A stretch of DNA of 64,000 nt from Elusimicrobiota bacterium (GTDB lineage Bacteria > Elusimicrobiota > Elusimicrobia > FEN-1173). Position numbers and translations under genes: made by a program. The notes under the pieces are model-generated. The model saw only the letters and a list, made by a program, of their open reading frames with translations, was not told where the DNA came from and did no database searches. Positions 481-33,562 of the stretch are shown piece after piece. The stretch spans positions 21,583 through 85,582 of the forward strand of contig JAYRXX010000063.1 of NCBI GenBank assembly GCA_041917295.1, in the 5' to 3' direction. Each line of letters begins with the position of its first letter. Positions within the stretch are counted from its first letter, which is position 1.

Positions 481-1989
481 TTAGGGCAGATCGGAACGTC
501 CCATGAGGTAACGGTCCACTTCCCGGGCGGCGCCGCGTCCCTCGTTGATAGCCCACACCACCAGGCTTTGGCCCCGGCGCGCGTCGCCGGCGGCGAACAC
601 GCCCGGAACACTGGTGGCAAACCGCCCGTGATCGGCTTTAATGTTGGAACGAGAGTCGCGTTCCACGTTAAGATCTTTCAAAAGTTTCTCTTCCGGACCC
701 AAAAACCCCAGGGCCAACAAAACCAGTTGGGCGGGCCACACTTTTTCCGTGCCCTGAACCGGCACGGGTCCTTTCGGACCCCATTCCACCTGAACCGTGT
801 GGAGTTCCTTCACGCGTTTGGAGTTTTCGCCCCCCTCAAAACGCGTGGTGGAAATCAAAAACTGGCGCGGGTCCGCCCCAAAAACCGCCGCCGCCTCTTC
901 TTGGCCGTAATCGGTGCGGAAAATTTTCGGCCATTGGGGCCACGGATTGTCGGCGGCCCGTTTTTCCGGCGGGCGAGGCATGATTTCAAACTGGACCACG
1001 CTTTTGGCCCCCTGACGCAGGGCCGTGCCCACGCAGTCGGTGCCCGTGTCGCCGCCGCCGATCACCACCACGTCTTTGCCCGACGCGGAAATGGATCGGC
1101 CGTCCATGAGTTTGGAATCCAACAAGCTTTTCGTGTTGGCGTGCAAATACTCCATGGCAAAATGAATTCCTTTCAACTCCCGGCCGGGCGCCTTCAAGTC
1201 CCGGGGCGCGGTTGCGCCCAGGGCCAACACCACGGCATCAAACTCTTTCTTGAGCTTTTCCGTCGGAAACGCAGCCGACCCCACCTCGGTGTTGGTCAAA
1301 AACGTGACCCCTTCTTTGGCCAACAAATCCACGCGCCGTTGGACCACGTTCTTGTCCAGTTTCATGTTGGGAATGCCGTACATGAGAAGACCGCCGATCC
1401 GGTCGGCCCGCTCGAACACCGTCACCGTGTGGCCCGCCCGGTTCAATTGGGCCGCCGCCGATAGGCCCGCCGGGCCCGATCCCACCACCGCCACTTTTTT
1501 TCCGGTGCGTTTTTTGGGGGGCTCGGCCTTGACCCACCCTTCGGCGAACCCGCGATCAATGATCGACACCTCGATGTTTTTAATGGTCACCGGGGGCTCG
1601 GAAATTCCCAACACGCAGGACCCTTCGCAGGGCGCGGGACAAACGCGGCCGGTGAATTCCGGGAAATTATTGGTTTTGTGCAACCGGTCCAGGGCGTCTT
1701 CCCACAAACCGCGAAACACCAAGTCGTTCCATTCCGGAATAAGGTTGTTGATGGGACATCCCGACGCCATCCCCGCCACCAAATTTCCCGTGTGGCAAAA
1801 AGGAACTCCGCAATCCATGCACCGGGCGCCCTGTTTGCGCAAAGATTCTTCGGGCATGTGCTGGTGGAACTCGTCCCAATGGCGAATTCGTTCCGTGGGA
1901 GAGGCGTCCGCGGGAAGCTCCCGTTGAAATTTCATAAACCCCGTCGGTTTGGCAACCCCCAACGGTTTCGGCGGATTCACGGCACTCAT
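481..1989 (-). CDS. gltD: glutamate synthase (NADPH) small subunit
   Basis: 502 aa with Fe-S cysteine motifs ([13 protein letters not shown]) and an FAD/NAD dinucleotide-binding motif [14 protein letters not shown]. Its start overlaps the gltB stop by 1 nt (TAATG). Confidence 0.9.
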
Positions 1990-4900
1990 TAGTTCCCCCC
2001 CACCCGCGAGAGGTCGCGGGCGTTTTCTTCGAACGCGGCCATGATGGCTTGGTCGCCCGTCATGCCGGCTTGGTGCATTTTTTTGATGGTGGAAATCATC
2101 CGTTTGTAGTCCCGGGGCATGATTTTAACGAAGGTTCGAATCAACGCGGGACCCTCTTCCAAAATGCGTTTGGCCACCGTGCTGGTGGTGTGCAACAAAT
2201 GTTTCACCAACAACCCGTGGACTTCCTGCACATCTTCTTCTTCCATGGGTTCGACTTCCACCATTTCCTTGTTCACCTTGCTGCGGAAATCGCCGTTGAC
2301 GTCCCAGACATACGCCACGCCGCCGGTCATGCCCGCGCCGAAATTACGCCCGGTGGGCCCGATCACCACCACCCGGCCGCCGGTCATGTATTCGCACCCG
2401 TGGTCCCCCACGCCTTCCACCACGGCGTGAACGCCGGAATTGCGGACCGCAAAGCGTTCCCCCGCCAACCCGCGGATGTAGGATTCGCCCGACGTGGCCC
2501 CGTAAAACGCCACGTTGCCGACGATGATGTTTTCTTCCGGCACATACCCCGCGGCCCGGGGCGGCGTCAAAATCAGCTTGCCTCCCGAGAGCCCCTTGCC
2601 GAAATAATCGTTGGCGTCGCCTTCCAGCGCCATCGTCATGCCCCGGGGGATGAACGCCCCAAAACTTTGTCCCGCCGATCCCTGGAACGTCAGCTCAATG
2701 GTATCGTCGGGCAACCCCTTGGCGCCGTAGCGGCGCGTCAACTCACTGCCCAGCTGGGTGCCGACCACCCGGTCACGGTTGCGAATAGGCACAACCGCTT
2801 TCACTTTTTCTCCCTTTTCCAAAGCCGGTTTGCACAAATCCAACAACACCCGTCGGTCCAAGGACCCATCCAGTCCGTGATCCTGCGCCATTTGACAGTA
2901 CCGACCCACCTCCGGCCCCACCGGCGGAGAATAAAGAATGTTGGAAAAATCCACCCCTTTGGCTTTCCAATGGTCCACCGCTTTGCGCCCTTCCAACCGA
3001 TCCACGCGGCCGATCATCTCGTTGAGGGACCGGAACCCCATTTGGGCCATGTATTCCCGGGCTTCCTGGGCGACAAACCGCATGAAATGAACCACGTGGG
3101 ACGGATCCCCCGTAAACTTTTTGCGCAGTTTGGGATCCTGCGTGGCCACGCCCACCGGGCACGTGTTCAAATGGCACACGCGCATCATGACGCACCCCAA
3201 CACCACCAGGGGCGCCGTGGCAAAACCAAACTCTTCGGCCCCCAACAACGCGGCGATCACCACGTCGCGGCCTGTTTTCAACTGACCGTCGGTCTCGACG
3301 ACAATTCGACTGCGCAGGTTGTTTAACACCAACGTTTGGTGCGTTTCCGCCAACCCCAATTCCCACGGCAGGCCCGCGTGTTTGATGGACGATTGGGGCG
3401 ACGCGCCCGTTCCACCGTCGAACCCCGAAATTAAAACCACGTCGGCGTGGGCTTTCGCGACCCCCGCGGCCACCGTGCCCACGCCCACCTCGGCCACCAG
3501 TTTCACGCTGATGCGGGCCTGGTGGTTGGCGTTTTTAAGGTCGTGGATGAGTTCGGCCAAATCTTCAATGGAATAAATGTCGTGGTGCGGCGGCGGTGAA
3601 ATAAGCCCCACGCCGGCCGTGGTGTGGCGCGTGCGCGCCACCCAGGGATACACTTTTGTGCCGGGCAGTTGGCCGCCTTCGCCGGGTTTGGCCCCTTGGG
3701 CCATTTTGATCTGGATTTCCCGGGCGTTGACCAAGTAGAGGCTTGTCACACCAAACCGGCCGGACGCAACCTGCTTGATCGCGCTGTTTTTGGAATCGCC
3801 GTTGGGCAACAGTTTGTATCGCTCCGGATCTTCGCCGCCTTCGCCGGTGTTGGATTTTCCGCCCACGCGGTTCATGGCGATGGCCAACGATTCGTGGGCC
3901 TCCTGAGAAATGGACCCGTAACTCATGGCGCCGGTCTTAAACCGTTTCATGATGGATTCCACCGATTCCACTTCCTCGATGGGCACCGGCCGATCGGCCG
4001 GTTTGAGATCCAACAAACCCCGCAACGTATAGTGTTCCCGGGCTTGATCGTTGACCAACGCCGCGTAACTTTGATACACATCGTATCGGTTGGTGCGGCA
4101 CGCCAACTGGAGGCGATGAATGGTTTCCGGGTTAAACAAATGCCGTTCGCCTTCTTTGCGCCACTGGTAATTGCCCCCCGCGTCCAGCACGTGGGCGTCC
4201 GCCGACACGGCGGAAAACGCCCGGTGATGACGCCGCCGAGCCTCCTCGGCGATCACGTCCAGACCAACCCCTCCCACCCGGGACGGAGTCCAGGTGAAAT
4301 ACCGATCGATCACGTCTTGCTTTAACCCCAGCGCCTCAAAAATTTGCGCGCCGCCGTAACTTTGGATGGTGGAGATCCCCATTTTCGAAATGGTTTTAAC
4401 GACGCCTTTGGTGGCCGCTTTAACATAATTTTTAATCGCCGCTTTGTGGTCGACGCCCACCAACATCCCCTGCTGGATCATGTCGTCAATGGTTTCGTAG
4501 GCCATGTACGGATTAATGGCTCCCACGCCATATCCCAACAACACGGCGAAATGGTGGGTTTCCCGGGGCTCGCCGGATTCCAGAATCAAACCCACTTTCA
4601 TGCGGGTGCCTTTGCGGATCATGTCGTGGTGCAGTCCCGCCACCGCCAACAACGCGGGGATGGGCGCCTTTTTCTCGTTGACGCCCCGGTCGGACAGAAT
4701 CAAAATGTTCACCCCGCCGGCCACGGCCTTGTCCGCCGCGGCAAACAAATCGTCCATGGCGCGACGAAGCCCGTCGCCGCCCTGGGCGGGATCAAACAAG
4801 ATGGGAAGGGTCAACGACCGGAACCCCGGCTCTTTGACTTGGCGAAGTTTTTCCAACTGCTCGTTGGTCAAAATCGGACTTTTCAATTCGATCAGTCGGC

Positions 4901-11242: not shown

Positions 11243-11932
11243 ATGAAACGGAAGGTTTTGGTCGTGGAAGACGACGCGGCCATCGCAAAACTCCTGGCGT
11301 ACAATCTCGAAAAAGAAGGGTATGAGCCGTTGCTGGCCAAGGACGGGGAAACGGCGGTGGCGCTGTTTCGAAGCCGCAAACCCCGGGTGGTCCTCTTGGA
11401 CCTGATGATTCCGAAAGTGGACGGCCTGGAGGTGTGCCGGTTGATTCGCGCCACGGACCGGTCCGTTCCGATTCTGATGTTGACGGCGAAAAGCGGCGAA
11501 GTGGACAAAATTGTCGGGCTGGAAATGGGCGCCGACGATTACGTGACAAAACCGTTTTCGGTTCGGGAAGTGATGACGCGGATAAAAACCCTGTTGCGCC
11601 GCACCTCTGCCGACAGCCCGGCCGCCGGGGCGGTTTTTCAAGTTGGCGCGTTGGTTTTGGATTCCGAAAAGCACACGGTTCATGTGGACGGAAAACCAAT
11701 CACGCTGACGGGCAAAGAATTCGATCTGCTTCGAACCCTGTGGGCGGCCCGGGGCAAAACCATGTCCCGGGAAGACATGCTGGAACAGGTGTGGGGCATC
11801 GACCGGGCGGCCGACATCGATACCCGAACCGTGGACCAGCACGTGGCGCGACTGCGGGGTAAATTGGGTGGCGAAAAAAACCGGTTGGTGACCGTCAAAA
11901 ACGTCGGGTATCGATTGGTCACGGAACCATGA
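11243..11932 (+). CDS. OmpR/PhoB-family response regulator
   Basis: REC domain (VLVVEDDAAIAKLL...LDLMIPKVDG) plus a winged-helix trans_reg_C domain (LTGKEFDLLRTLW...VDQHVARLRGKL). Starts immediately after the preceding stop. Confidence 0.85.
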   Translation: MKRKVLVVEDDAAIAKLLAYNLEKEGYEPLLAKDGETAVALFRSRKPRVVLLDLMIPKVDGLEVCRLIRATDRSVPILMLTAKSGEVDKIVGLEMGADDYVTKPFSVREVMTRIKTLLRRTSADSPAAGAVFQVGALVLDSEKHTVHVDGKPITLTGKEFDLLRTLWAARGKTMSREDMLEQVWGIDRAADIDTRTVDQHVARLRGKLGGEKNRLVTVKNVGYRLVTEP

Positions 11933-13020
11933 TCCGGCTGTTTCGCCGCCGCGTCCCCCCCGCGTCCCCCCCTGAAACAAAACCCGCCTCGGCCCGTCCC
12001 GATTTCATGAAAAATCTCGTCCATTCTTTAACCGACGGGGTTGTGGCGGTGGACGACCAACGGCGCGTTTTGCTGGCCAACCCGGCGGTGGACGGGCTTT
12101 TTAACCAGCCCTCGGCCAGCGCCGTGGGCAAACCCCTGTGGGAAGTGTTTCGCCATCGGGAGTGGGGCGCCCTGGTGGACCGCGTCTTTCAGACGGGCCA
12201 ACCCGAAAACAAAGAAATGGCGTTCGGACCGGCCAACGATCGGATTTACGACGTGAAAGTGGTCCCCATTATGGAGGGAGGCACCGTCCGCCACGTGGTG
12301 GCCACGTTTCATGAGGTGACCGCCTTGCGCCGGTTGGAACAGGGGCGGCGGGAATTTGTGGCGAACGTGTCCCACGAACTGAAAACGCCGTTAACCGCCC
12401 TCAGCGCCGCGCTCGAAACCCTGCTTGATGGCGCCCTCACGGACCCCGACCACGCCCGCGACTTTTTGATCACCGCCCAGGAACAGACCGCGCGGTTGCA
12501 ACGATTGATTGAGGATTTACTGGCTCTGTCCCGGCTGGACCGGCCCCAATCGAACCCATCGCCCGCTTCGTGCGTTCTTCAAGAAACCGGCCGGCGTGTG
12601 GTGAAAGCGCTGTCCCCCTTAGCCCAGAAATCCGGGGTGGCGGTGGGGCTGGATTTGCCAACAGATCCCTTGATCGTTGCCATGGCCGAAGACGAACTCA
12701 CGCAGGTGCTTGTTAATTTATTGGACAACGCCATTAAGTTTAACAGGCCCGACGGTCGGGTGGAAGTGCGCGCCCGGGCGGACGGCGTCAACACGGTGAT
12801 CGAAGTCAAAGACAGCGGTGTGGGCATTTCGGCGAACGATCAAGCGAGGGTGTTCGAGCGATTTTATCGGGCGGACAAATCCCGGGGCTCCGATCGGGGC
12901 GGAACCGGACTGGGCCTGGCTATTGTCAAACACATCGTCGAAAATCGAGGGGGAACTGTCGCGGTAACCAGCCGAACGGGAGAAGGGAGCGTTTTTTCCG
13001 TCCGGCTCCCGCGCCCGTAA
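11929..13020 (+). CDS. PAS-domain sensor histidine kinase (PhoR-like, no transmembrane segment)
   Basis: PAS region, H-box ANVSHELKTPLTAL, and HATPase_c N/G boxes (LLDNAIKFN, GTGLGLAIVKHIVE). ATGA overlap with the upstream regulator. Confidence 0.85.
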   Translation: MIRLFRRRVPPASPPETKPASARPDFMKNLVHSLTDGVVAVDDQRRVLLANPAVDGLFNQPSASAVGKPLWEVFRHREWGALVDRVFQTGQPENKEMAFGPANDRIYDVKVVPIMEGGTVRHVVATFHEVTALRRLEQGRREFVANVSHELKTPLTALSAALETLLDGALTDPDHARDFLITAQEQTARLQRLIEDLLALSRLDRPQSNPSPASCVLQETGRRVVKALSPLAQKSGVAVGLDLPTDPLIVAMAEDELTQVLVNLLDNAIKFNRPDGRVEVRARADGVNTVIEVKDSGVGISANDQARVFERFYRADKSRGSDRGGTGLGLAIVKHIVENRGGTVAVTSRTGEGSVFSVRLPRP

Positions 13021-14153: not shown

Positions 14154-14267
14154 GAGTCACTCCTTTGGGTCGGATTGGGTGTTTCCTTTCTTCAGTATAG
14201 CTCACCTCCGAAAAACCCGTGTAAAGAAGATGTCACATTCGTGTAAAATTTTTCCCATAAAAAACCA

Positions 14268-14295
14268 TTGATTTATGACGAAATCTGAGTATACT
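14268..14295 (+). promoter_or_regulatory. sigma70-like promoter
   Basis: TTGATT (14268-14273), 16-nt spacer, TATACT (14290-14295), in an AT-rich gap. AGGAGG lies 5 nt before the TTG start at 14327. Confidence 0.4.
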
Positions 14296-14326: not shown

Positions 14327-16093
14327 TTGCGCCGGCACCTGTTTTTCTTGATTTCCACCGTCTTCTTTTCTCGAAGCCCCGCAATGGGCCTGGAATTTTT
14401 CTCAGACCGAACCATCGCCACGAAAGGGCCGGAAATTTTGAACCGCAACATCGGCGCCGGACCCGCTTCCCGGGGAGGGACCGGCGTGGCGTTGGGAGAA
14501 GATTCCAACTCACTTTTTTGGAACCCCGCCTGGGTTCAGGAACAAAAGCGTTCTGAAATCCTGTTGACCCACGAAACCGGTTTTGCCGGAGAACGATTGG
14601 ATAGTTTGGCCTGGGTTCGGCCCTACTGGGCCCGGGGCCGACGACGGACGTGGGGGGTGAGCGCGGCTTATTTGTCCCAAGACTCTTTTGAGATAAAATC
14701 AAATGACCAATCCATGGGCCAGGCCAACCCTTACGATTTGGCGGCGGGTCTGACTTACGCCCACCCCTGGGGACGAAGCCATGTTGGTTTGACCGCCAAA
14801 TACGTTCGCCAAGAACTGTTCAGTACCCACGCCCAAGCCATTGCCGCGGACATCGGCTGGGCCTTGACAGGAACGCGGTTCCGGACGGGGGCCGCTTTGG
14901 CCAATTTGGGGACACCGCTCCAGGGGTCGGGCGAAAGCGTGGGCCTTCCGCTGTCGGTGAAAGGCGGGGGCGCCTACCGTATTTTCTCTCAACCCCGCCA
15001 ACGCTGTTGGCTTGTGGGCCAACTGGACGCCCCGGCCGACGATCGGCCGATTGTCCATGGGGGATTGGAATACACCGCCCTTTTTTCAGACCGATGGACA
15101 TTGTCGTTACGGGGAGGATATCAAACCCTCGGTGCGGGGGAAGGGGTTTCATCCGGGTTCGGGCTCCAACGGGAGAACTGGGGGTTCAATTACGGGTTCC
15201 AAATGCAAAAAGATTTGGGCGACCTGCACCGGCTGGACCTTTCGTTCCGTTTCGGAGATCCGATCCGACAGGAACAGCAACGGGCCGAACTGCTTCAGGA
15301 CGCCGAGAAAAATTTGATCCAAAGCGACCTCTTGTCCGCGCGAAAAAAACTGATTGAACTGAACACGCTATCGCCCGGCGACCCGGCCGTAACCCGGTTA
15401 CGTCAAAAGCTGGAATCGCGCCTGGCCGAAAGTGTCGACCCGGCCACCCTGTTCGCCCAAGGGGTTCAATTGTTCGAATCGGGAGAAACGGAAAAGGCGT
15501 TGACCCTTTTTGAAAAAGTGTCGGTCATTGAGCCAAAATTTCCCCACGCACAAGCCTGGCTGGATCGGTGCCGATCCAAAATCGAAGACCAACGGGTTCG
15601 GCAATTGAAAAAAGATTTGGCCCGGGCCAAAGAAAAAGAAATTTCCAAGCTTATGGTCCAGGCCCGGGACTTGGAATCCGCCAAAAAGTGGGAAGAAGCC
15701 GCTCAGGTCTGGAAAAAGGCCCGGGAAACGGGAGCGCCGGTATCGGTGGCGGACAACGGCTTGGATCGGTGCCGTGGGGCGTTGGTGGCGATCGCGGACC
15801 GGCGGGAAAAAGAGTCCGACTGGGACGGCGCCCTGGCGGCTCTTCGGTCGGCACAAACTTGCGGCGATCCCGACAAAGAATTGTCCGGCCGAACGGCCCG
15901 TTTGGAAAAAACAAAAACGGAATTCCAAAAACGTTTGGCCCAATCCACCTACACCGAAGGGATGGACGCCTATCAGGCCGGAGATATGTCCCGCGCCCGA
16001 ACTCTGTTTCAAAAAGCGGTCACACTGGACCCCGCCAATTCCACGTATCAACGGGCCCTGGACCGCACCCGAGCGGACCGGACCAATCCATGA
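14327..16093 (+). CDS. secreted protein: N-terminal beta-barrel-like domain (PorV/PorQ/FadL-like glycine motif) fused to C-terminal TPR/coiled-coil repeats
   Basis: TTG start with strong RBS and signal-like N-terminus. N-terminal motif GAGPASRGGTGVALGEDSNSLFWNPAW with alternating beta-strand pattern over ~300 aa. The C-terminal ~280 aa are TPR-like helical repeats. Stop ATGA-overlaps the downstream histidine kinase. Confidence 0.6.
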   Translation: MRRHLFFLISTVFFSRSPAMGLEFFSDRTIATKGPEILNRNIGAGPASRGGTGVALGEDSNSLFWNPAWVQEQKRSEILLTHETGFAGERLDSLAWVRPYWARGRRRTWGVSAAYLSQDSFEIKSNDQSMGQANPYDLAAGLTYAHPWGRSHVGLTAKYVRQELFSTHAQAIAADIGWALTGTRFRTGAALANLGTPLQGSGESVGLPLSVKGGGAYRIFSQPRQRCWLVGQLDAPADDRPIVHGGLEYTALFSDRWTLSLRGGYQTLGAGEGVSSGFGLQRENWGFNYGFQMQKDLGDLHRLDLSFRFGDPIRQEQQRAELLQDAEKNLIQSDLLSARKKLIELNTLSPGDPAVTRLRQKLESRLAESVDPATLFAQGVQLFESGETEKALTLFEKVSVIEPKFPHAQAWLDRCRSKIEDQRVRQLKKDLARAKEKEISKLMVQARDLESAKKWEEAAQVWKKARETGAPVSVADNGLDRCRGALVAIADRREKESDWDGALAALRSAQTCGDPDKELSGRTARLEKTKTEFQKRLAQSTYTEGMDAYQAGDMSRARTLFQKAVTLDPANSTYQRALDRTRADRTNP

Positions 16094-17469
16094 CGATACG
16101 GACCCGCGTGACCGGACTGATGTTGATGTTTGTGCTGGGAATTGTTTTTCTTTCGGGCTCGGCCCTCTACGTCTCGGAAAAAAAGGCGCTTCGGGCCGAA
16201 GCGCTGTCGACTCGAACCAGAACGGCGGACCAATTTGCGCGGGCGTGCCGGGACGCGTTGAAAGTGGGTGACGAACTGGCCGCCCTGAACGCCGCCCAGT
16301 ATGTGGGCCAGGTTCCGGGTGTTCTGCAAGCCTACGCGGTGGACGCCGCAAACAGGGTCGTGGCGCACACGGTGAAAGGTCGATTGGGCCGTTCGCCGAT
16401 CCAGGATCCGCCCCTGGCGGACCGGTGGCGGGTGGTTCGGTCCTTGGGGCTGGCTCGTTCAAAAGACAAGCCCGACGCCCAAGCGGTTGTGGATTTTTCT
16501 CGATCCACGTTGGAGGACGACATCGCCGCGGCTCTACGGCCGGCGGCACGGCGCATTGCGGGGGTCACGGCGGCCGCGTCGATTCTGAGTCTGTTGGGGG
16601 CGGCTTTGTTGGCTGGGAGCATCACCCGCCCCCTCGATCGAATTGCCCAAGCCACCCGGGCGTTGGCCGATGGGCGGTTAAACCACGTCATCGAACCGCT
16701 CGGACACGACGAAGTCGGCGCGTTGGCCAACGATTTTAATCGAATGGCGGCCCGGTTGGGCGAAGTGGAACAAATGAAAAGCGCCTTTGTGGCCAACGTC
16801 ACCCACGAGTTGCGATCGCCGATTTCCGCCATCGAAAGTTGCGCGCGGCTGATTGCCGAAGAAGTTCGCGCCGGCGATTTGGCGGACGTAACGGAGCAAC
16901 TGTCGTCGGTCCGCAACAACGCGAGTCGACTGGGACGGTTTATTAATAATTTGCTTGACTTATCCAAGATCGACGCGGGCGCAACCGGGGTGGATCCGGA
17001 ACGGTTGTCGGCGCGGGAGTCCCTTGACGAGGTGGCAAACCTGTTTCACGCCAAAGCCCTGGAAAAAAACATCGCGCTGGCACTGGATGTGACGGACGGG
17101 TTGGAGATCTGGGCCGACCCCGACAAGCTGGGGCAGATCATCACCAATTTGGTGGGAAACGCCCTAAAGTTCACCCCGCCCAACGGCCGCATTACGTTGC
17201 GGGGTCGGGCGGACGGGTCCGGCACCGTGTTGAGCGTGGCGGACACCGGTCCGGGAATCCGGCCGGAAGATCAAGCCCGTATTTTTGACCGGTTCGAGCA
17301 GGTTCGGGAAACCCGCGATCGGGTCAATGGCCCGAAAGGAACGGGCCTGGGATTGGCCATTGCGCGGGGTCTGGCCGAAGCCCATGGGGGCCGTTTGACG
17401 GTTCGTTCCGTGGTCGGACAGGGAAGCGAATTTATACTCTGGTTACCCAAGGAGGTAGAGAATGGTTAA
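16090..17469 (+). CDS. sensor histidine kinase (2 TM, periplasmic sensor domain, HAMP, HisKA, HATPase_c)
   Basis: Starts MTIRTRVTGLMLMFVLGIVFLSG (TM1), with a second TM at AAASILSLLGAALLAG. H-box VTHELRSPISAIE, N box GNALKFT, G box GTGLGLAIARGLAE. The ORF-track N-terminus (15568) is an in-frame extension through the upstream gene. Confidence 0.85.
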   Translation: MTIRTRVTGLMLMFVLGIVFLSGSALYVSEKKALRAEALSTRTRTADQFARACRDALKVGDELAALNAAQYVGQVPGVLQAYAVDAANRVVAHTVKGRLGRSPIQDPPLADRWRVVRSLGLARSKDKPDAQAVVDFSRSTLEDDIAAALRPAARRIAGVTAAASILSLLGAALLAGSITRPLDRIAQATRALADGRLNHVIEPLGHDEVGALANDFNRMAARLGEVEQMKSAFVANVTHELRSPISAIESCARLIAEEVRAGDLADVTEQLSSVRNNASRLGRFINNLLDLSKIDAGATGVDPERLSARESLDEVANLFHAKALEKNIALALDVTDGLEIWADPDKLGQIITNLVGNALKFTPPNGRITLRGRADGSGTVLSVADTGPGIRPEDQARIFDRFEQVRETRDRVNGPKGTGLGLAIARGLAEAHGGRLTVRSVVGQGSEFILWLPKEVENG

Positions 17470-18160
17470 TCAACGCGTGTTGGTGGTGGACGACGAACCG
17501 GACTTTCGCATGGTGATCGGGAAGATATTGCGGGACGAACAATTTGTGGTTTTGGAAGCGGCCAACGGCGAAGAGGGGGAAAAAATGGCCCGAGAATCCC
17601 GTCCCGACGCTCTGCTTTTGGATTGGAACTTACCGCACAAAGATGGAATTGATGTGTGCAAAGCGTTGAAGTCGGATCCCGCCACGCGGTCGATCCCGAT
17701 TTTAATGTTGACATCCCGGTCCCGGGAAGAAGACGCCGTGCTGGCCCTGGAAATTGGGGCCGACGATTTTGTGGTCAAAAAGGCGTTGCGCCGAAAAGAA
17801 GTGATCGCGCGGGTTCGCGCCCTGATCCGGCGGGCCGCCGCGCCGGTGGACACGTCCGGAGAAATCATCGAGGTGGGCAAGATCCGCATCGACACCGCCC
17901 GGCGCGTCGTGACGGTGCAAGGAAAACCCGTGGCCCTTCGGCTTAAAGAGTTCGACCTGCTTCACGTCATGGCCAAACGACCGGACCGGGTGTTGACCCG
18001 CAACTTTCTGAGTGAAACCGTGTGGGGCGATCCCTATTTCGGCACCACCCGCACCATCGACATGACCGTCGCCCATTTGCGGGGCCAACTGGGGCCGGAA
18101 GGGCGGCGCATCGAAAGTTTGATCGGGGTGGGCTACAAATTTCTCGGACCCAACAGCTAA
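17462..18160 (+). CDS. OmpR-family response regulator
   Basis: REC domain (VLVVDDEPDF...LLLDWNLPHKDG) plus winged-helix output domain. AGGAGG RBS. 8-nt overlap with the kinase. Confidence 0.85.
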   Translation: MVNQRVLVVDDEPDFRMVIGKILRDEQFVVLEAANGEEGEKMARESRPDALLLDWNLPHKDGIDVCKALKSDPATRSIPILMLTSRSREEDAVLALEIGADDFVVKKALRRKEVIARVRALIRRAAAPVDTSGEIIEVGKIRIDTARRVVTVQGKPVALRLKEFDLLHVMAKRPDRVLTRNFLSETVWGDPYFGTTRTIDMTVAHLRGQLGPEGRRIESLIGVGYKFLGPNS

Positions 18161-18167
18161 CCCCAAT

Positions 18168-18240
18168 GCACTTTAGATAAGCCGTCATCCCGGCAAAAGC
18201 CGGGATCCAGTCATTGGAATGATGGCTAAAGTGCGGTTTT
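18168..18240 (+). terminator. nested-hairpin rho-independent terminator after the regulator gene
   Basis: Outer stem GCACTTTAG (18168-18176) / CTAAAGTGC (18226-18234) encloses an inner hairpin ATCCCGGC-AAAA-GCCGGGAT, then GGTTTT. A second hairpin CCCCGGC-TTTC-GCCGGGG at 18251-18268 could serve the convergent minus-strand gene. Confidence 0.4.
18183..18215. repeat. short palindromic element, copy 1 (REP-like)
   Basis: CGTCATCCCGGCAAAAGCCGGGATCCAGTCATT. Closely resembles the 33563-33600 element. Confidence 0.35.
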
Positions 18241-18308
18241 AAACCCTGGCCCCCGGCTTTCGCCGGGGAGACAATCCTTATTTGAACCGCATTGCAGCTA
18301 ACCCGAAA

Positions 18309-20237
18309 TTACCATTCCACCAGAACTTCGCCCCGGTCGGTTCGGCCGTCGGCCTCAACGGCAATGACGTACATCCCGGCGCGCACGCGTTCCTGAGCCT
18401 CGTTGCGGCCGTCCCACACAACGACCGCCGTTCCGTTGACCTCCTCATCAAGAAGAGTCCGCACTTTTCGTCCGCTCCGCTCAAACACCGTCGCCCGCAA
18501 TCGGCCACCGGACGAAAAACAGTCCCACTGGGCACGCTCCGCCCCGCCCCGTCCCACCCGGTTGGTCACCACCGCCATTCGTGATCCCGCGTTCGCAACG
18601 GTGAGGGCCACCGAAGCCGGAGCGCTTTCCCGTCCGGATGCCTGCCGAAAGACAACCGACACCGTTTTGGGCCCGGGCGTTCCAACGATCTCAACGGTTC
18701 GCCGAGTCTGGTAAGGCATCCACCGATCTTTATCCGGACCGTCTATGGCGCCCGACAATTTCATTTCCGTTGGGGAACCCCGAACCGCGAACTCCAAGTC
18801 CGCTCTTTTTGTTGACCCGCTTTGCCCGACGATCCGCACCGTCGGATCCGTGAGGGGTTCAAACCCATAAAACAAGTTGATGTGCCACCGATGGAGGGAA
18901 GGTCCGGGTTTTTGGATGATCCACAGATCGTCGCGGCCGTCCAGGTCCATATCCACCAGATGGATTTCGTCTTGTTCGTGGGATTCGCCGTCAATGGTTA
19001 AGCTGGGCGTGTTCGACAGGGACCCGTCCGCCAACGCGTCGTCGGCCAAAAAGAGGGCGGTCACCGTTTTCACTCCCCCCGTGGAAGACCAAACCAAATC
19101 GTCATGCCCGTCGCCATCAAAATCCCCGGCGGCGGCCAGGGTGTCCACCTGGCCCGCCTGCCGGAGGAACGTGGGGGACAGCCCATCGATGGACACAGTC
19201 CCATTCTGGGCTCCCAGCACCGGTCCGGAGAGAAGTCGCCAGCGAACGGTTGACCCGGACTGTTCGCGGACCACCGCGTCCAAGCGGCCGTCTCCATTTC
19301 GGTCCGCGGCCAATACAAAATCCAAAGACCACCCGGGCGACGCCGTAACCCGCAAGGGCGGGTTGCTGGACGCGTTCCACGTGGACGGCAAAGTAGTCGC
19401 TCCCCAAAAAATGTCCAAGCCGGTTCCCCGGCTAAGAACCAGATCGGCGACGCTGTCTGCGTCTAAATGGAAAACAGGGTTACGTCCTTTCAAACAACCG
19501 GAATAGCCTTGCCATTTCTTCACATCGGGCATCGAGTCCAACAGCACAGATCCGGCCAAACGGGTTTTCATGGGCAAAATGTAAAGCACGTCATGAACAG
19601 CGGAAAAACCGGTGCTGGTCATAACAAGATCTATTTTTCCGTCGTCATCAACGTCCCCCGCGTGGAGAGATAACGCGGACGGGAACTGGGAGGAAGGCCA
19701 TCTCGCCTGAAAATCAGGGCTCTCTTTATCCCGAGTCGTCCAGGCCTCGCGACCCCAAAACACCCCGAGGGTGGTGTCGTAGAGGACGAAATCCAATTTC
19801 CCATCACCGTCCCAATCGGACAGGTTATGCAATAGACTGAAATGCCCTTGACCGGATTGATTAAAAAAAGACGATTCATACAACACAAAAGACCGAGCCT
19901 CGTTTAGATTAATTGTTTCGGACAACCGCTGGCCTGGGCGGCTCAACACCGAAACATTCGAATACACCCATCGGCCTGAAAAAATGGGCGGTGATTCCAA
20001 AACATGAAAAAAAACCGCGTCGGGCTTGCCGTCCTGATCCACATCACCGAAAACGGCCTGCCGGCCCGCCAATGAGCCATGCTGGCCTGTTTCAATGCGC
20101 GCATCTTGGTCGCCGTCTTCCAGGGAATAATTTGGGAAAGTGCCGGCGTAGACCGAAACGAATCCGACCGTCGCCGCGACAACCGCGGGAAACAAGGGCC
20201 TACTCCAGCAACACATTGACTTTCTCCTGGCGTCCAT
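18309..20237 (-). CDS. secreted FG-GAP/VCBS-repeat beta-propeller protein with C-terminal FlgD-Ig-like (T9SS-CTD-like) domain
   Basis: Signal peptide. Repeated Ca-binding-like motifs (DVDQDGKPD, DWDGDGKLD, DVDDDGKIDLV, GDFDGDGHDDLV, DMDLDGRDDL). C-terminal ~80 aa ...VVWDGRNEAQERVRAGMYVIAVEADG... matches the FlgD Ig-like pattern. ORF track starts at 20246; M4 at 20237 is preferred. Confidence 0.65.
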   Translation of the reverse strand: MDARRKSMCCWSRPLFPAVVAATVGFVSVYAGTFPNYSLEDGDQDARIETGQHGSLAGRQAVFGDVDQDGKPDAVFFHVLESPPIFSGRWVYSNVSVLSRPGQRLSETINLNEARSFVLYESSFFNQSGQGHFSLLHNLSDWDGDGKLDFVLYDTTLGVFWGREAWTTRDKESPDFQARWPSSQFPSALSLHAGDVDDDGKIDLVMTSTGFSAVHDVLYILPMKTRLAGSVLLDSMPDVKKWQGYSGCLKGRNPVFHLDADSVADLVLSRGTGLDIFWGATTLPSTWNASSNPPLRVTASPGWSLDFVLAADRNGDGRLDAVVREQSGSTVRWRLLSGPVLGAQNGTVSIDGLSPTFLRQAGQVDTLAAAGDFDGDGHDDLVWSSTGGVKTVTALFLADDALADGSLSNTPSLTIDGESHEQDEIHLVDMDLDGRDDLWIIQKPGPSLHRWHINLFYGFEPLTDPTVRIVGQSGSTKRADLEFAVRGSPTEMKLSGAIDGPDKDRWMPYQTRRTVEIVGTPGPKTVSVVFRQASGRESAPASVALTVANAGSRMAVVTNRVGRGGAERAQWDCFSSGGRLRATVFERSGRKVRTLLDEEVNGTAVVVWDGRNEAQERVRAGMYVIAVEADGRTDRGEVLVEW

Positions 20238-22074
20238 CAAAATCAACCACCACCACGTACACTCCGGGCCGAACCCGTTCTCCGGCGTCGTTTCGCCCGT
20301 CCCAACGAACGGTCAGTAGTCCCTGGCCATCCAGCGCATTCAATTGCCGAACTTTCCGCCCGTTCCGTTCAAACACCGATGCCCGAATGGGGCCCATTTC
20401 CACCCGGCAATCCAATTCCACATCCGGTTGCGATCCGGACATCCGGTTGGTCACCGCCCGCAAGCGGGGCCCATCCGAGGAAACAGTAAGCGCGGCTGAA
20501 ACCGGCGCGCTTTCGCGGCCATCGCGGGTTCGATAAACGACCGTCACGCTTTTGGGCGCCGGATTTGATGTGAACCGGACAGATCGTTGAGATTGAAACG
20601 GGATCCACGCACCCGCCCATTCCTCATCCAAATCGCCGGTCAATTTCATTTCGGCGGGGTTGCCATTAACGGAAAATTCCAGCCGGGCCCGTTTGGCGCC
20701 GGGATCGTGACTCACCACCGAAAGAGACGGATTTTCCAGCGGGAGAAACCCATAAAAGGTGTTGAGGCTTGCCACGATGGGGTTGAGAAAACTGGAAGAC
20801 CAAATAAAAATGTCTTTGATCCCATCGCTGTCCCAATCCGCCGAAAAAATGTTTACTCCGGAAACAAATTCATCCCCCGCTGTTTGGATGCTAAAACGGG
20901 AAGAACCGAGCGGAAACGAAGAGGCCGTGCCGCCTTTGAAAAATTCAAAGAGGGTGGTGCCGCCGGCCGTCATGGCCGCGGGATCGTCTTTGGTGTCCCC
21001 GTCCACATCGGAAAACAAACGGAGGGATTGGTTGTTGCCGGTTTGCATAACCAACGTCGGGGACAACGCGGACAAAGCGATGGTGCCGGTTCCGATATTG
21101 AGACTAAAACCGTCTACCCACCACCAGGTGGCGGGGGTCCCACTTTGGCGAAGAATCAGATCCACCATCCCATCTTCGTTTTGGTCCGTCACGAATCCCG
21201 GAGTTAGGGAAACGCCGACCTGCCCGCTGGTTACTTTTAAGACTTCCGTGGACCCGGCCCAATCCCATCCCATGCGAGGGGCGGCGGTTCCGTAAACAAT
21301 CGTCACGTTGTCTTGGTTCCCAAACAACAGATCGTCCCGCCCGTCGCGGTTGACATCCATGACCGTTGACCCCATCTCGCGAACGCCCGCCAGCCATCGT
21401 TGGGCGTTTGCGGGATCGGTCGGATCGATGGTTTCCGGTAAATCCTCTTTTCCAAAAACAATAAGGGTTTCCATATCACCGGAAATGGACGGCCACGTTA
21501 AAACCAAATCATCCCGATCGTCCCCGTTCACATCGGCGGAGGTCATTCCGATACGGGACAAGAAACTCCCCTGGGGAGAGGGCGACAGAGGGACGGTCCA
21601 ATCCGCCTCAAGGCGCGTCGAATCGTCCGTCCACACCGGCCGCCCCCGTAACACCCGAACAGCCGAGGATCCATAAAAAACAAGGTCTTGCCGTCCGTCT
21701 TTATTGAGATCAATGGTTCCCAGAAGCACTTCGTCCGGGTTTAAGAAAAACCGAAAAGGATTGTTGGAGAGCGCCTGGGAAGGACTCCCCGAACGGGTTC
21801 CATTTCCTTGGCCCAATATCACATTGGGCGCCAGTACGCTGTCGCCGCGAAACGCCACGATCAAATCAGGATGATCGTCCCCCATCACATCGGCCACCTG
21901 AACAGAATCGACGGTGGCCATCAGGGTAGCCCGGTCGTCCTGGTCCCCCCCCGCGCCCACAACGTAATGGGGAAACACCCCCGCCCCGGCAGGGAAAGAC
22001 CACATAAGAAAGGCACAGGACACCCATTCCAACGGTTTCAATGAATCCTCCCCCGACCTTCTTCTCGCGCCCAT
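20200..22074 (-). CDS. paralogous secreted FG-GAP/VCBS-repeat protein with C-terminal FlgD-Ig-like domain
   Basis: Same architecture as its neighbour (DLNKDGRQD, DVNGDDRDDLV, DVNRDGRDDLL, DWDSDGIKDIF; C-terminus ...LTVRWDGRNDAGERVRPGVYVVVVDFDG...). The ORF track extends to 22170. The start at 22074 has a GGGGG RBS and leaves the upstream promoter intergenic. Confidence 0.65.
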   Translation of the reverse strand: MGARRRSGEDSLKPLEWVSCAFLMWSFPAGAGVFPHYVVGAGGDQDDRATLMATVDSVQVADVMGDDHPDLIVAFRGDSVLAPNVILGQGNGTRSGSPSQALSNNPFRFFLNPDEVLLGTIDLNKDGRQDLVFYGSSAVRVLRGRPVWTDDSTRLEADWTVPLSPSPQGSFLSRIGMTSADVNGDDRDDLVLTWPSISGDMETLIVFGKEDLPETIDPTDPANAQRWLAGVREMGSTVMDVNRDGRDDLLFGNQDNVTIVYGTAAPRMGWDWAGSTEVLKVTSGQVGVSLTPGFVTDQNEDGMVDLILRQSGTPATWWWVDGFSLNIGTGTIALSALSPTLVMQTGNNQSLRLFSDVDGDTKDDPAAMTAGGTTLFEFFKGGTASSFPLGSSRFSIQTAGDEFVSGVNIFSADWDSDGIKDIFIWSSSFLNPIVASLNTFYGFLPLENPSLSVVSHDPGAKRARLEFSVNGNPAEMKLTGDLDEEWAGAWIPFQSQRSVRFTSNPAPKSVTVVYRTRDGRESAPVSAALTVSSDGPRLRAVTNRMSGSQPDVELDCRVEMGPIRASVFERNGRKVRQLNALDGQGLLTVRWDGRNDAGERVRPGVYVVVVDFDGRQEKVNVLLE

Positions 22075-22158
22075 AAGCATACCCCCGAATAACCCAATTG
22101 AAAACCCCCCGACCCGCACGCAAAGGGGACATGGTTGACCAATTGGTTTTTCCAATAT

Positions 22159-22188
22159 TTGACATCCCATTACAAGCCAATGTAGAAT
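22159..22188 (+). promoter_or_regulatory. strong sigma70-like promoter oriented toward amtB
   Basis: Perfect -35 TTGACA (22159-22164), 18-nt spacer, -10 TAGAAT (22183-22188). Confidence 0.4.
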
Positions 22189-31004: not shown

Positions 31005-31050
31005 ACGATGATTATAAAACTTCGATTAATTTATTTCAGAAGTCTCTCTA

Positions 31051-31965
31051 TCAGGCGGCGCCGGTGGCGGGCAAGCGGGATTCGGAGCTGGAGGAACGCA
31101 CTTCGGTCGTCAGCGTTGCTTCCAGATCGGAAAAAGAGGCCCCCGCTTTGTAGGAAAATCCGATCCGGACAACGTCCCCCAGCCCGACGGGGAAGGCTTT
31201 CGGCAGCGGTAAGATCAAATAGTGGCTGTGCCAATCAATGGTTTTTTTTGTTTCGGACACAACCGCCAGGATGTTTTTCGTAATAAACCGGAGGGCATTC
31301 AGGGCCCCTTCTTTTTCAATCTCAATTTCGCCGCTCCAATCGCAGCGGGCCGGGATGGAGTCTTTGTACGTATGCAACTGATACACTTTCGGCATCCCCA
31401 ACTCCCGTGTTTTTTCGTGCAAAACATTGGGATTTTGAAGAATAGGGATCGGGGCGTAATACCCATCGAAGGTAAAATCGTGTTCCACCGGTTGCACGGC
31501 CTGGATAAAGGCCTCGGGAACAAACTGGGGCAACGGGTTCCCAAACCGAGCCAGATATCGTTCTTTAAATGAATTGAGAATAGGAATTTGTTTTTCCCTC
31601 AACATGGCCACATGGATCATTTCACAGATCACCACGTCCACGGGTTCCGGGGGCAGGTATTTGAACGCGTCCGCTTTGATCACCTTTATTTTATTGCCGC
31701 ACTCGTTCATTGAAAGGATCTGTCTTGCTTTCGACACGAGTTCCGGATTGCGCTCAACGCACCACACTTTTCCGGCTTTGAGTCCCGCGAAATAGGAAAG
31801 AACCCCGGTTCCACCACCCAATTCCAAGACCTTCCCCCCCAGCGGAACCAAATAATCAATAGCGGTTTTAAACCCGCGCATGCGGGTGACGTCGCTGAGC
31901 ATGTTGTGATGGTAGTGCAGGGGGATAAACTGCCCCAGCACCGAGGAGTCGTCCGCTCGAACCAT
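31051..31965 (-). CDS. PRMT-like (protein arginine N-methyltransferase fold) class I SAM-dependent methyltransferase
   Basis: Motif I VLELGGGTGVLS, post-I VDVVICEMIHVAMLREKQ (PRMT double-E-loop-like), and an N-terminal ...HHNMLSDVTRMRGFKTAI pre-motif. GC is lower than in flanking core genes. Confidence 0.6.
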   Translation of the reverse strand: MVRADDSSVLGQFIPLHYHHNMLSDVTRMRGFKTAIDYLVPLGGKVLELGGGTGVLSYFAGLKAGKVWCVERNPELVSKARQILSMNECGNKIKVIKADAFKYLPPEPVDVVICEMIHVAMLREKQIPILNSFKERYLARFGNPLPQFVPEAFIQAVQPVEHDFTFDGYYAPIPILQNPNVLHEKTRELGMPKVYQLHTYKDSIPARCDWSGEIEIEKEGALNALRFITKNILAVVSETKKTIDWHSHYLILPLPKAFPVGLGDVVRIGFSYKAGASFSDLEATLTTEVRSSSSESRLPATGAA

Positions 31966-32090
31966 GCGAGCCTTCTTTACTTAAGTTGGGGACACGGCCA
32001 AACCGCTTCCGGGACCCAACGTAAGTATCGGACGAATTGGGAATTTCTTAACGGAGAGAAAAATAAAAATGGCAAAAACGTTGCTTGTAT

Positions 32091-32099
32091 GTGAAACAA
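32091..32099. repeat. target-site duplication, left copy (GTGAAACAA)
   Basis: Identical 9-mer directly flanks both IS ends. Confidence 0.6.
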
Positions 32100-33387: not shown

Positions 33388-33396
33388 GTGAAACAA
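33388..33396. repeat. target-site duplication, right copy (GTGAAACAA)
   Basis: See the left copy. Confidence 0.6.
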
Positions 33397-33562
33397 TAGT
33401 TTACAAAAGATTTACAAGTTGTTAAGGCGAAATTAACTTGGTTCAGTTACAATATCCTCGTTAAAATTGTTTCACCTATTTTCCAAAGATAATTAATGGC
33501 TTATTTGCTTATGTCAATGCGCTACTGCATAGTTATACAGGAACGAAAGGCATTTCCATGCC

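Follow-up and report, generated by a model that had tools for sequence, protein, structure and literature searches.

A conserved Elusimicrobiota gene cluster of CTD-ended propeller proteins, a tailed PorV/PorQ-family barrel and a two-component system

Introduction

PorV (LptO) of Flavobacterium johnsoniae and Porphyromonas gingivalis (6h3i_F and 8gl6_F) is a barrel of FadL-like fold that binds the type A C-terminal domains (CTDs) of cargo proteins (PMC12618676). It is a single general shuttle of about 345-400 aa without a C-terminal tail, and its hosts belong to the FCB group. In the PorQ-PorZ and PorV-PorU pairs, a protein of propeller or enzyme type is held by the barrel through a CTD that is not cleaved off. 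PorQ-PorZ is a complex of the P. gingivalis type IX secretion system (T9SS) (PMC10947112), and both pairs are present in the attachment complex (PMC12365241).

Two other arrangements are relevant here. The first is a signalling circuit in P. gingivalis, in which PorXY-SigP is activated by binding of the PorA CTD to the kinase PorY in the periplasm; PorA is a cargo protein that is found bound to PorV (PMC12152298, PMC7712824). In the second, a type B CTD cargo depends for its secretion or anchoring on its own PorP/SprF-like barrel, and the two genes are adjacent (PMC12618676, PMC9143113); PorP barrels are also found in complexes with CTD cargo and with PorE, a periplasmic protein associated with the outer membrane (PorE-PorP-PG1035; PMC9143113). 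The PorP/SprF-like clusters are without a two-component system.

More distantly, FecA-FecR-FecI, RcsF-IgaA and NlpE-CpxA are cases in which a sensor in the inner membrane receives its signal from an outer-membrane component that has an extension or a partner in the periplasm, and QseG-QseE is another such case (PMC6075780). Here we describe a locus with features of several of these systems, in a window of 64 kb (the whole stretch of Elusimicrobiota DNA that was analysed).

The locus and its genes

Table 1. Features of the locus (aa, position in the protein; other positions in nucleotides of the window)
Feature	Position	Strand	Description or basis
Direct repeat	14218..14247	+	CGTGTAAA-N14-CGTGTAAA; 21-50 bp upstream of -35 hexamer
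Sigma-70-like promoter	14268..14295	+	TTGATT, 16 nt, TATACT; 9/12 matches in consensus scan
Gene 1, PorV/PorQ-family outer-membrane barrel with C-terminal TPR/helical tail	14327..16093	+	588 aa, TTG start
Gene 1, plug-like region	aa 32-75	+	AlphaFold2 model
Gene 1, beta barrel	aa 76-309, nt 14552-15253	+	NF033709, AlphaFold2 model
Gene 1, all-alpha TPR/helical tail, 275 residues	aa 312-586, nt 15260-16084	+	TPR_2, AlphaFold2 model
Sensor histidine kinase, two TM and HAMP	16090..17469	+	459 aa; Pfam
Kinase, TM1	~ aa 9-27	+	two-TM kinase
Kinase, periplasmic sensor domain	~ aa 28-151, nt 16171-16542	+	conserved in module orthologues
Kinase, TM2	~ aa 152-172	+	two-TM kinase
Kinase, HAMP	aa 173-224	+	Pfam
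Kinase, HisKA	aa 229-297	+	Pfam
Kinase, HATPase_c	aa 343-455	+	Pfam
OmpR/PhoB-family response regulator	17462..18160	+	232 aa; Response_reg and Trans_reg_C
Inverted GC-rich hairpin pair	18189..18267	.	CCCGGCAAAAGCCGGG and CCCGGCGAAAGCCGGG; between convergent regulator and FG-GAP genes
FG-GAP beta-propeller protein 1	18309..20246	-	longest ORF 645 aa; Pfam FG-GAP_3, FG-GAP, FlgD_ig
Protein 1, propeller	~ aa 40-460	-	Pfam, AlphaFold2
Protein 1, Ig-like domain	aa 466-550	-	AlphaFold2
Protein 1, C-terminal FlgD-Ig/T9SS-CTD-like beta sandwich	aa 557-643	-	profile matches, AlphaFold2
FG-GAP beta-propeller protein 2	20200..22170	-	longest ORF 656 aa; same C-terminal domain as protein 1

The earlier note on this DNA had named gene 1, a kinase and a response regulator, and the three ORFs lie where it had placed them (Table 1). 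Its descriptions of the products also agree with our results: gene 1 has the PorV/FadL-like barrel and the TPR tail, the kinase has two TM segments around a periplasmic domain, and the regulator has the domains of the OmpR type.

The TTG start of gene 1 (14327) has AGGAGG 5 nt upstream, and P0002 and P0003, which are near-identical in length to the product of this start, have N-termini that align with MRRH... from residue 1. In the public calls the gene instead begins at the ATG at 14384 (569 aa), and with this start the signal peptide of the product, at approximately aa 1-21, would be lost, although an outer-membrane protein requires one.

The NCBIfam model NF033709 (PorV/PorQ family) matches aa 36-309 of gene 1 with 110.3 bits (cutoff 90), and the best PDB folds for the AlphaFold2 model (pLDDT 87.9) are both PorV (8gl6_F and 6h3i_F; E 2e-12 and 6e-11, target TM 0.63-0.67), with FadL and TodX ranking below. 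A barrel topology closest to PorV is thus predicted with high confidence. Full-length homologues were found. In the equivalog models of NCBIfam, gene 1 scores 34 bits for PorV, where the cutoff is 250, and is far from the PorQ cutoff. TPR_2 scores 43.6 bits in the tail (cutoff 27), with more TPR matches across aa 352-578, and outer-membrane-protein topology would probably put this tail in the periplasm.

The sensor domain of the kinase is conserved among the module orthologues. Three of the six orthologous sensors match sCache_3_2, which suggests a small, Cache-like, periplasmic domain, although Pfam finds no match in the sensor of the window kinase itself. The regulator is below the cutoff of every NCBIfam equivalog (for example, PhoB, 193.7 vs 296.2), and by its Pfam domains it is not of the CheY-PglZ type seen in PorX.

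The junction between gene 1 and the kinase reads ccATGAcg, with the kinase ATG (16090) lying over the gene-1 TGA (16091-16093) in a 4-nt overlap; the kinase stop and regulator start overlap by 8 nt, ATGGTTAA. By itself, an ATGA overlap is common in operons. However, it is conserved in seven of nine related loci, with GTGA in an eighth (L007), and this conservation raises it above chance and upholds the coupling claimed before. The overlap of the tail end with the kinase start is kept among relatives at 34-81% identity, which points to stoichiometric co-production.

The two FG-GAP proteins are paralogues (33% identical). The public call for protein 1 is 635 aa, implying a start at 20216, and protein 2 aligns to its paralogue only from residue 31 on, so its start is probably near 22080. 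The AlphaFold2 model of protein 1 (pLDDT 81) has a propeller, an Ig domain and a C-terminal sandwich, and its second-best PDB match is PorZ. The CTD profile of both proteins matches FlgD Ig domains and the CTDs of PorZ, PorU and RgpB, and 11 of 13 aligned CTDs match TIGR04183. The matches of the two window CTDs are weaker: FlgD_ig gives 24.2 and 22.0 (cutoff 27), PorZ/PorU give E 0.015-0.03, below NCBIfam cutoffs, and both proteins are far from the PorZ equivalog cutoff.

Conservation in Elusimicrobiota

In relatives within Elusimicrobiota, at identities as low as about 22%, the barrel-TPR gene again lies beside this kinase and regulator, and orthologues of FG-GAP protein 1 adjoin barrel-TPR genes there. 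The earlier note had named two outcomes that would refute it, the absence of a barrel topology and a first gene not conserved with the two-component pair, and our results show neither. The FG-GAP/CTD protein, the barrel-TPR protein, the kinase and usually the regulator are clustered in L001, L003, L006, L007, L008, L087, L088 and L091, and the L009 cluster has a different CTD cargo. The order of the genes differs from locus to locus. FG-GAP proteins with a T9SS-like CTD are therefore a fourth conserved part of the cluster. In one metagenome-assembled genome (MAG) the whole module occurs three times, in copies that have diverged (L006, L007 and L087).

The neighbors of barrels with and without the tail display a clear pattern. 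The orthologous kinase adjoins 11 of 15 informative tail-bearing barrels and only 1 of 50 tail-less PorV-like ones (Fisher p = 1.7e-8), and a CTD-ended ORF is immediately upstream of 36 of 72 tail-less barrels. On these counts, cargo is associated with the barrel, and the kinase with the tail. However, three tail-bearing loci have no kinase (L002, L090 and L093) and another, L092, has a different system of cytoplasmic type, so the tail does not strictly require the kinase. Divergence of the barrel runs in parallel with that of the tail and of the kinase sensor, and the paralogous modules in one MAG show this too (Spearman 0.78 for tail vs sensor). Shared ancestry alone would give correlated divergence of the three.

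Comparison with described systems

The module resembles the PorA-PorV-PorY-PorX circuit of Porphyromonas, but in a fused and operonic form. The same four kinds of player are present as in PorA-PorV-PorY-PorX-SigP, whose genes are dispersed in P. gingivalis and clustered here. That circuit has no TPR tail, PorA has a FimH-like domain in place of the FG-GAP propeller, and PorX acts with an ECF sigma factor. As for PorV itself, the general shuttle is replaced here by a tailed barrel with CTD-like proteins, apparently dedicated cargo, as conserved gene neighbors, in a phylum outside FCB.

PorZ, as noted above, is among the top fold matches of the FG-GAP model, which recalls the PorQ-PorZ pair, but no PorU sortase or A-LPS context is seen here, and the PorQ-PorZ and PorV-PorU pairs are without the kinase coupling present here. 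In PorE-PorP, a barrel with a periplasmic partner resembles the barrel with its tail, but the barrel is of the PorP/SprF and not the PorV/PorQ family and the partner is a separate protein, not a fusion. BcsC, PgaA and AlgK/AlgE also join a periplasmic TPR solenoid to an outer-membrane barrel, but in reversed order, with the TPR at the N-terminus; their barrels are 16-18 stranded, the substrate is a polysaccharide and there is no coupled kinase. BcsC is also present among the fold matches of the gene-1 model. The FecA, RcsF, NlpE and QseG systems consist of unrelated proteins (a 22-strand TonB-dependent barrel with an N-terminal signalling domain, or lipoproteins), their partners are anti-sigma factors or other sensors, and they have no CTD cargo.

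What the module may do

With some caution, we are inclined to read the locus as one copy of a conserved Elusimicrobiota envelope module that brings together cargo, shuttle and sensor and has parts of four kinds. The secreted FG-GAP propeller proteins, one or two in number and each with a FlgD-Ig/type-IX-like CTD at the end, would traverse the inner membrane by Sec and be received, through the CTD, by the PorV/PorQ-family barrel, which would hold or shuttle them at the cell surface. The tail at the C-terminus of the barrel would hang into the periplasm and either report whether the barrel is cargo-loaded or empty, or present the cargo CTD, to the periplasmic domain of the kinase. The regulator would then adjust transcription, most likely of the module itself. 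The earlier note had proposed a three-part envelope-spanning signalling device. A joint action of the barrel protein and the kinase is supported, because the kinase accompanies tailed barrels, but there are at least four parts. As the known job of this barrel family is CTD binding, the device probably serves the handling of surface proteins and is less likely to sense the envelope in general. The conserved cluster suggests a direct link from the display of surface proteins to signalling, and its phylum is not the one from which type IX secretion has been reported.

The kinase and regulator might instead only co-regulate the surface-protein operon, which seems rather unlikely to us. Here the kinase would sense an unrelated small-molecule or envelope cue, the regulator would switch the operon, and the tail would handle cargo without ever touching the kinase, for example as a dock for FG-GAP proteins in the periplasm or for other partners, in the manner of PorE or PorW. 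Cache domains mostly bind small molecules, so the sensor, with its sCache_3_2 matches among orthologues, may respond to something unrelated to the barrel; the tailed barrels without a nearby kinase agree with this, and operon membership alone would suffice for a regulator and its target. T9SS-family barrels also have periplasmic partners for structural reasons, PorE-PorP being one example (PMC9143113) and PorW (PMC8754138) a further one. However, the kinase tracks the tail and not the cargo-barrel pair, the overlap that points to stoichiometric co-production is retained, and the binding of a CTD by PorY is a precedent for direct protein sensing in a related system (PMC12152298).

It is less probable still, and we would call it doubtful, that the locus is an accessory of a canonical T9SS, in which case the organism would have the full system, the PorV/PorQ paralogue would hold a PorZ-like propeller, and the kinase and regulator would be the PorY/PorX counterpart for secretion genes. 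The family of the barrel and the PorZ match (propellers and CTD) fit this explanation, and the PorQ-PorZ and PorV-PorU pairs and PorXY regulation are established (PMC10947112, PMC4800418). However, T9SS is described only in the FCB superphylum (PMC11205867), the searchable literature yielded no report of it for Elusimicrobiota, and there are no T9SS core genes within the 64-kb window. The distance from the PorV, PorQ and PorZ equivalogs and the OmpR-type regulator also argue against it, and three diverged copies in one MAG fit dedicated cargo modules better than one core machine.

In Pseudomonas putida, todX lies beside todST, an uptake channel with a substrate sensor. A FadL/TodX-type barrel that imports a hydrophobic compound sensed by the kinase is nevertheless very improbable here: FadL, TbuX and TodX are the next-best folds after PorV and the barrel has an N-terminal plug-like segment, but PorV is better by 4 to 6 orders of magnitude in the fold matches and by E 5e-41 vs 5e-4 (TodX) in the profile comparison, the constant neighbors are CTD-ended proteins, the cluster has no catabolic genes, and FadL-type channels have no counterpart of the TPR tail.

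Flanking DNA

The promoter that had been claimed for gene 1 was found by our scan. In two relatives (L004 and L005; 81% protein identity) its two hexamers are unchanged, as are the ribosome-binding site and the TTG start, while the flanks diverge. Three copies of CGTGTAAA are present in the window, two of them in the direct repeat listed in Table 1. The spaced pair is not significant compared to shuffles and is not conserved in L004, and it is at best a weak candidate for a regulator box. The gene-1 promoter and the FG-GAP upstream region were compared for shared motifs, and no common operator motif was found.

A terminator had also been claimed, at 18168-18240. No terminator is called 3' of 18160 by the consensus scan, and with no U tract the structure is not a canonical intrinsic terminator, but a strong hairpin pair is indeed there. 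Over 18155-18290 the predicted folding is far stronger than in shuffled sequence (z = -4.8). It depends on CCCGGCRAAAGCCGGG, which is present in two inverted copies, at 18189 and 18252, and the hairpin pair is probably a bidirectional transcription stop.

One conserved cluster here brings together genes for putative cargo with a C-terminal sorting domain (CTD) of the type IX secretion (T9SS) kind, a barrel of the PorV type, a sensor kinase and a response regulator. The barrel continues into a fused, probably periplasmic tail, and the occurrence of the kinase follows that of this tail. The three plus-strand open reading frames of the barrel-TPR gene (gene 1), the kinase and the regulator are at the positions claimed in the earlier note, which did not include the two FG-GAP propeller proteins in its unit.

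Features of the module and of other parts of the window
Feature	Position	Strand	Remarks
OmpR-type regulator, second pair	11243-11932	+	4-nt overlap with kinase
PAS-HisKA-HATPase kinase, second pair	11929-13020	+	no obvious periplasmic domain
Candidate regulator box CGTGTAAA-N14-CGTGTAAA	14218-14247	+	weak lead only
Sigma-70-like promoter site	14268-14295	+	TTGATT, 16 nt, TATACT; found by scan
Gene 1, barrel-TPR	14327-16093	+	588 aa, TTG start
Sensor histidine kinase	16090-17469	+	459 aa
OmpR/PhoB-type regulator	17462-18160	+	232 aa
Palindromic unit CCCGGCRAAAGCCGGG, inverted pair	18189-18204 and 18252-18267		between convergent genes
FG-GAP1	18309-20246	-	convergent, just downstream of regulator
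FG-GAP2	20200-22170	-	convergent, just downstream
IS4-family transposase	32188-33360		in low-GC stretch
2313-aa ORF	33621-40562		in low-GC stretch; signal-peptide-like start
tRNA-Leu(taa)	41370-41453	-	near end of low-GC stretch

The Barrel-TPR Protein

Residues 36-309 of the gene 1 protein match positions 5-326 of the 326 in NF033709, the subfamily-level NCBIfam profile of the PorV/PorQ family, with 110.3 bits (curated cutoff 90). The equivalog cutoffs of PorV (NF033710, 34.3 bits, cutoff 250) and PorQ (NF033711, 51.6 bits, cutoff 220) are not reached; the protein is a member of the family and an orthologue of neither PorV nor PorQ proper. In the AlphaFold2 model, for which 22 sequences were used (mean pLDDT 87.9), a short plug-like N-terminal segment is followed by beta strands at residues 76-309 and 12 helices at residues 312-586. 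Of the PDB entries, PorV structures of the type IX translocon match the model best: 8gl6_F with E 2e-12, then 6h3i_F with E 6e-11 and a target TM of 0.67. A sequence profile of gene 1 also detects PorV, with E 5e-41. The predicted fold is a FadL-like outer-membrane beta barrel with an N-terminal plug-like segment.

The tail matches TPR_2 of Pfam with 43.6 bits (cutoff 27), and TPR_14 and TPR_11 are also above cutoff. Its helices are canonical TPRs in part only, and two of them are very long (residues 408-451 and 517-550). A PorV/FadL-like barrel with a TPR tail had been proposed from the sequence; the family profile, the predicted barrel fold, the PorV structures as best match and the TPR matches in the second half all bear this out.

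For gene 1 we favor the TTG start, which has AGGAGG 5 nt 5' of it and leads into a typical signal peptide, MRRHLFFLISTVFFSRSPAMG. Two homologues called full length, P0002 (587 aa) and P0003 (589 aa), have N-termini that align with MRRH... from residue 1. Public gene calls begin at ATG 14384 and give 569 aa with the signal peptide omitted; this start was rejected because the signal peptide is lost and because 14327 is favored by the homologues and by the conservation of the ribosome-binding site and of the TTG.

The Kinase and the Regulator

The kinase has HAMP, HisKA and HATPase_c domains above the Pfam cutoffs and is a transmembrane sensor histidine kinase of the HisKA class. Two hydrophobic segments read from the sequence (residues 9-27 and 152-172) have about 124 residues between them, and the periplasmic domain is conserved among the module orthologues. 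Three of six aligned orthologous sensors match sCache_3_2 (PF17203, best E 1.9e-9), and the kinase of the window does not. The regulator consists of a receiver domain (96.8 bits) and a winged-helix Trans_reg_C domain (70.3 bits) in Pfam and belongs to the OmpR/PhoB family. It is below every equivalog cutoff (for example, 193.7 vs 296.2 for PhoB), and so it has no named orthologue.

A second two-component pair is encoded on the same strand just upstream, at 11243-13020, and a divergent O-methyltransferase gene sits between this pair and the module.

Junctions and Expression Signals

The junction of gene 1 and the kinase reads ccATGAcg, in which the kinase ATG and the gene 1 TGA overlap by 4 nt; the kinase and regulator genes overlap by 8 nt. 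The ATGA junction is kept in seven of nine loci, and in locus L007 it is GTGA. The promoter that had been claimed for the unit is present as a sigma-70-like site. In the two relatives that have 81% protein identity, this site is unchanged, as are the ribosome-binding site and the TTG, while the adjacent bases vary; this small phylogenetic footprint favors a promoter. As an operator for the regulator, the CGTGTAAA pair is suggestive but no more than a weak lead, being not significant against shuffles and not conserved in one of these relatives, L004. A comparison of the region of this pair with the FG-GAP upstream region for a common operator gave only an 8-mer in common.

The terminator claimed after 18160 stands in part. 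A scan calls no canonical terminator there, but the region 18155-18290, between the regulator gene and the convergent gene, folds far better than shuffled sequence (z = -4.8), and the fold is a strong hairpin pair whose basis is an inverted pair of CCCGGCRAAAGCCGGG units. The rest of the window has only two looser copies, at 25899 and 59437, and these units may be members of a small dispersed family of palindromic repeats. Rfam has no match in the module region.

The FG-GAP Proteins

FG-GAP1 and FG-GAP2 share 33% identity, and with the FG-GAP protein of L001, a related locus, they share 30%. The final ~90 residues of the FG-GAP proteins align with the C-termini of varied proteins encoded upstream of PorV-like genes elsewhere. 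The alignment has the pattern of a type A CTD, which by the TIGR04183/PF18962 criterion is a terminal domain of ~80 aa that matches these models and forms a beta sandwich at the extreme C-terminus. TIGR04183 is matched by 11 of 13 related CTDs. The FG-GAP proteins of the window score 24.2 and 22.0 bits against FlgD_ig, under the cutoff of 27, and are divergent copies; the CTD of FG-GAP1 alone gives below-cutoff matches to PorZ (E 0.015) and PorU (E 0.027). A profile of the module CTDs has its best match in FlgD Ig (E 3e-8) and, among CTDs in the PDB, finds those of PorZ (7e-5), PorU (4e-4) and the gingipain RgpB (3e-3). In the AlphaFold2 model of FG-GAP1 (pLDDT 81), a beta propeller is followed by an Ig-like domain and, at residues 557-643, by a terminal beta sandwich; PorZ is the second-best PDB match of the model. 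The protein upstream in locus L002 has no sequence similarity to the FG-GAP protein of the window and is linked to it through its CTD only.

Conservation of the Module

Full-length relatives of gene 1 occur both in MAGs of Elusimicrobiota and on unbinned contigs from metagenomes. The earlier note proposed conservation of the trio as a check; gene 1 is conserved with the two-component genes, in the neighborhoods tabulated below, which extend down to 22% identity. The fusion of barrel and tail is not a one-off and is common in metagenomes; an exhaustive profile search found it in at least 100 of the 149 listed cluster representatives at 50% identity.

Related loci and the order of the module genes in them
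Locus	Identity to gene 1	Genes
L004/L005	81%	barrel-TPR, kinase, regulator
L003	46%	FG-GAP protein, barrel-TPR, kinase
L006, L008	about 35%	two FG-GAP proteins, barrel-TPR, kinase
L007	about 34%	FG-GAP, barrel-TPR, kinase, regulator
L001	34%	kinase, regulator, FG-GAP, barrel-TPR
L009 (Endomicrobiales)	22%	different CTD-ended protein, barrel-TPR, Cache kinase
L087		FG-GAP, barrel-TPR, kinase, regulator
L088		two FG-GAP, barrel-TPR, kinase
L091		FG-GAP, barrel-TPR, kinase

The association of the genes displays a pattern: the cargo associates with the barrel, and the kinase associates with the tail. For comparison, 79 PorV-like genes without a tail (median 323 aa) were taken from MAGs of Elusimicrobiota, of the FCB group and of other groups. 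A CTD-ended ORF lies immediately upstream on the same strand in 36 of the 72 tail-less genes that have enough upstream sequence, in similar proportions in Elusimicrobiota (13/29), the FCB group (14/27) and the others (9/16). A kinase of the module type is within 2.5 kb of only one of 50 tail-less genes, whereas the orthologous kinase is adjacent in 11 of 15 informative tail-bearing loci (Fisher p = 1.7e-8). Of the four exceptions, L002, L090 and L093 are without a kinase, and L092 carries another system, of the cytoplasmic type.

Some loci have additional features. One Elusimicrobia MAG (JADKCG01) contains three diverged copies of the whole module (L006, L007 and L087); the reading frame is split in the kinase of L007 and in the barrel-TPR gene of L087, which could be due to long-read indel errors or to pseudogenization. 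In L009, a second, tail-less PorV-like gene (308 aa) directly follows the gene for an 878-aa protein with a Por_Secre_tail-like end (920-4564, minus strand), and this pair is back to back with the tail-bearing module. In L093 (2627-5564), a distant tail-bearing barrel is alone beside two heptosyltransferase genes and a lipid A acyltransferase gene, which hints at an LPS link in some family members.

Proposed Function

By analogy with type IX secretion, we predict that the FG-GAP proteins are dedicated cargo of the gene 1 barrel. Since an outer-membrane barrel normally has its N- and C-terminus in the periplasm, we infer that the C-terminal tail of gene 1 reaches into this compartment. There the Cache-like sensor of the co-translated kinase would receive input from the tail, from the cargo CTD or from both, and expression would be adjusted by the OmpR-type regulator.

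The chief alternative is simple co-regulation, in which the kinase would sense a ligand and the tail would serve cargo handling only. The barrel, the tail and the kinase sensor show parallel divergence, even among the three paralogous modules of one MAG (~35% identity in each part), and this fits cognate sets but is also expected from a common history. That the kinase is linked to the tail, rather than to the barrel, counts against co-regulation alone.

A broader reading, which we consider rather unlikely, is that the PorV-like barrels and CTD-ended proteins of Elusimicrobiota form a minimal surface-display or export system without a type IX translocon, and that the tail-bearing subfamily is an outer-to-inner-membrane transducer. 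The FG-GAP propeller displayed by the barrel would then be an extracellular receptor, and ligand binding or cargo occupancy would be passed through the barrel and the periplasmic TPR tail to the Cache kinase. If true, this would be a four-part trans-envelope receptor built of type IX secretion parts.

FadL, TbuX and TodX come next after PorV among the PDB matches of the gene 1 model, but an uptake channel of the FadL/TodX type ranks low, PorV being the better match in both fold and profile. TonB-dependent cell-surface signaling was rejected since Pfam and NCBIfam find neither a 22-strand barrel nor an N-terminal signaling domain in the module proteins, and the partner here is a kinase rather than an anti-sigma/ECF sigma pair.

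Relation to Type IX Secretion

Uncleaved CTDs are the means by which PorQ retains PorZ and PorV retains PorU. The T9SS of Porphyromonas gingivalis has an established PorQ-PorZ complex (PMC10947112), and PorV binds type A CTDs and shuttles cargo or holds it at the surface (PMC12618676). Genes for type B cargo adjoin those of the cognate barrels, which are of the PorP/SprF kind; PorP has a periplasmic binding partner, PorE (PMC9143113). The gene pairs of tail-less PorV-like barrels and CTD proteins resemble this type B pairing, but their barrels are of the PorV/PorQ family.

Signaling of the status of an outer-membrane or surface protein to the cytoplasm is known for few systems only. For type IX secretion, the link from cargo to the PorXY kinase has been worked out only recently, and the genes are dispersed. 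In the periplasm of P. gingivalis, the PorV-bound cargo PorA uses its CTD to bind the kinase PorY, and this activates PorXY-SigP (PMC12152298, PMC7712824). The module would work like this PorA-PorV-PorY-PorX circuit and is not a member of it, because it has a different regulator output, clustered genes and a TPR-fused barrel and is from a non-FCB phylum. As to the output, PorX and PorY membership was rejected on the DNA-binding Trans_reg_C domain, which is not the CheY plus PglZ/alkaline-phosphatase-like arrangement; the regulator and kinase may nevertheless work like PorXY.

Type IX secretion has been described in the FCB superphylum (PMC11205867). In Elusimicrobiota, which lie outside this superphylum, genes for PorV homologues and for type-A-like sorting domains occur in pairs, and this bears on the origin of type IX secretion parts. 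Within the 64-kb window there is no gene for the T9SS translocon or motor (SprA/Sov, PorK/L/M/N) or for the sortase PorU. Literature searches on PorV/T9SS parts in Elusimicrobia/Elusimicrobiota found nothing relevant, and no paper was found that describes the fused barrel-TPR architecture. This architecture and the association of tail and kinase would be moderately surprising to a specialist. The module is a compact system, and the constructs with which cargo-to-kinase signaling could be tested by binding and structural work are obvious.

A Low-GC Stretch Elsewhere in the Window

The 2313-aa ORF of the window has no match in NCBIfam. It lies in a stretch from about 30000 to 42000 in which the GC content is 0.50-0.55 vs about 0.60, and which looks like an inserted island.
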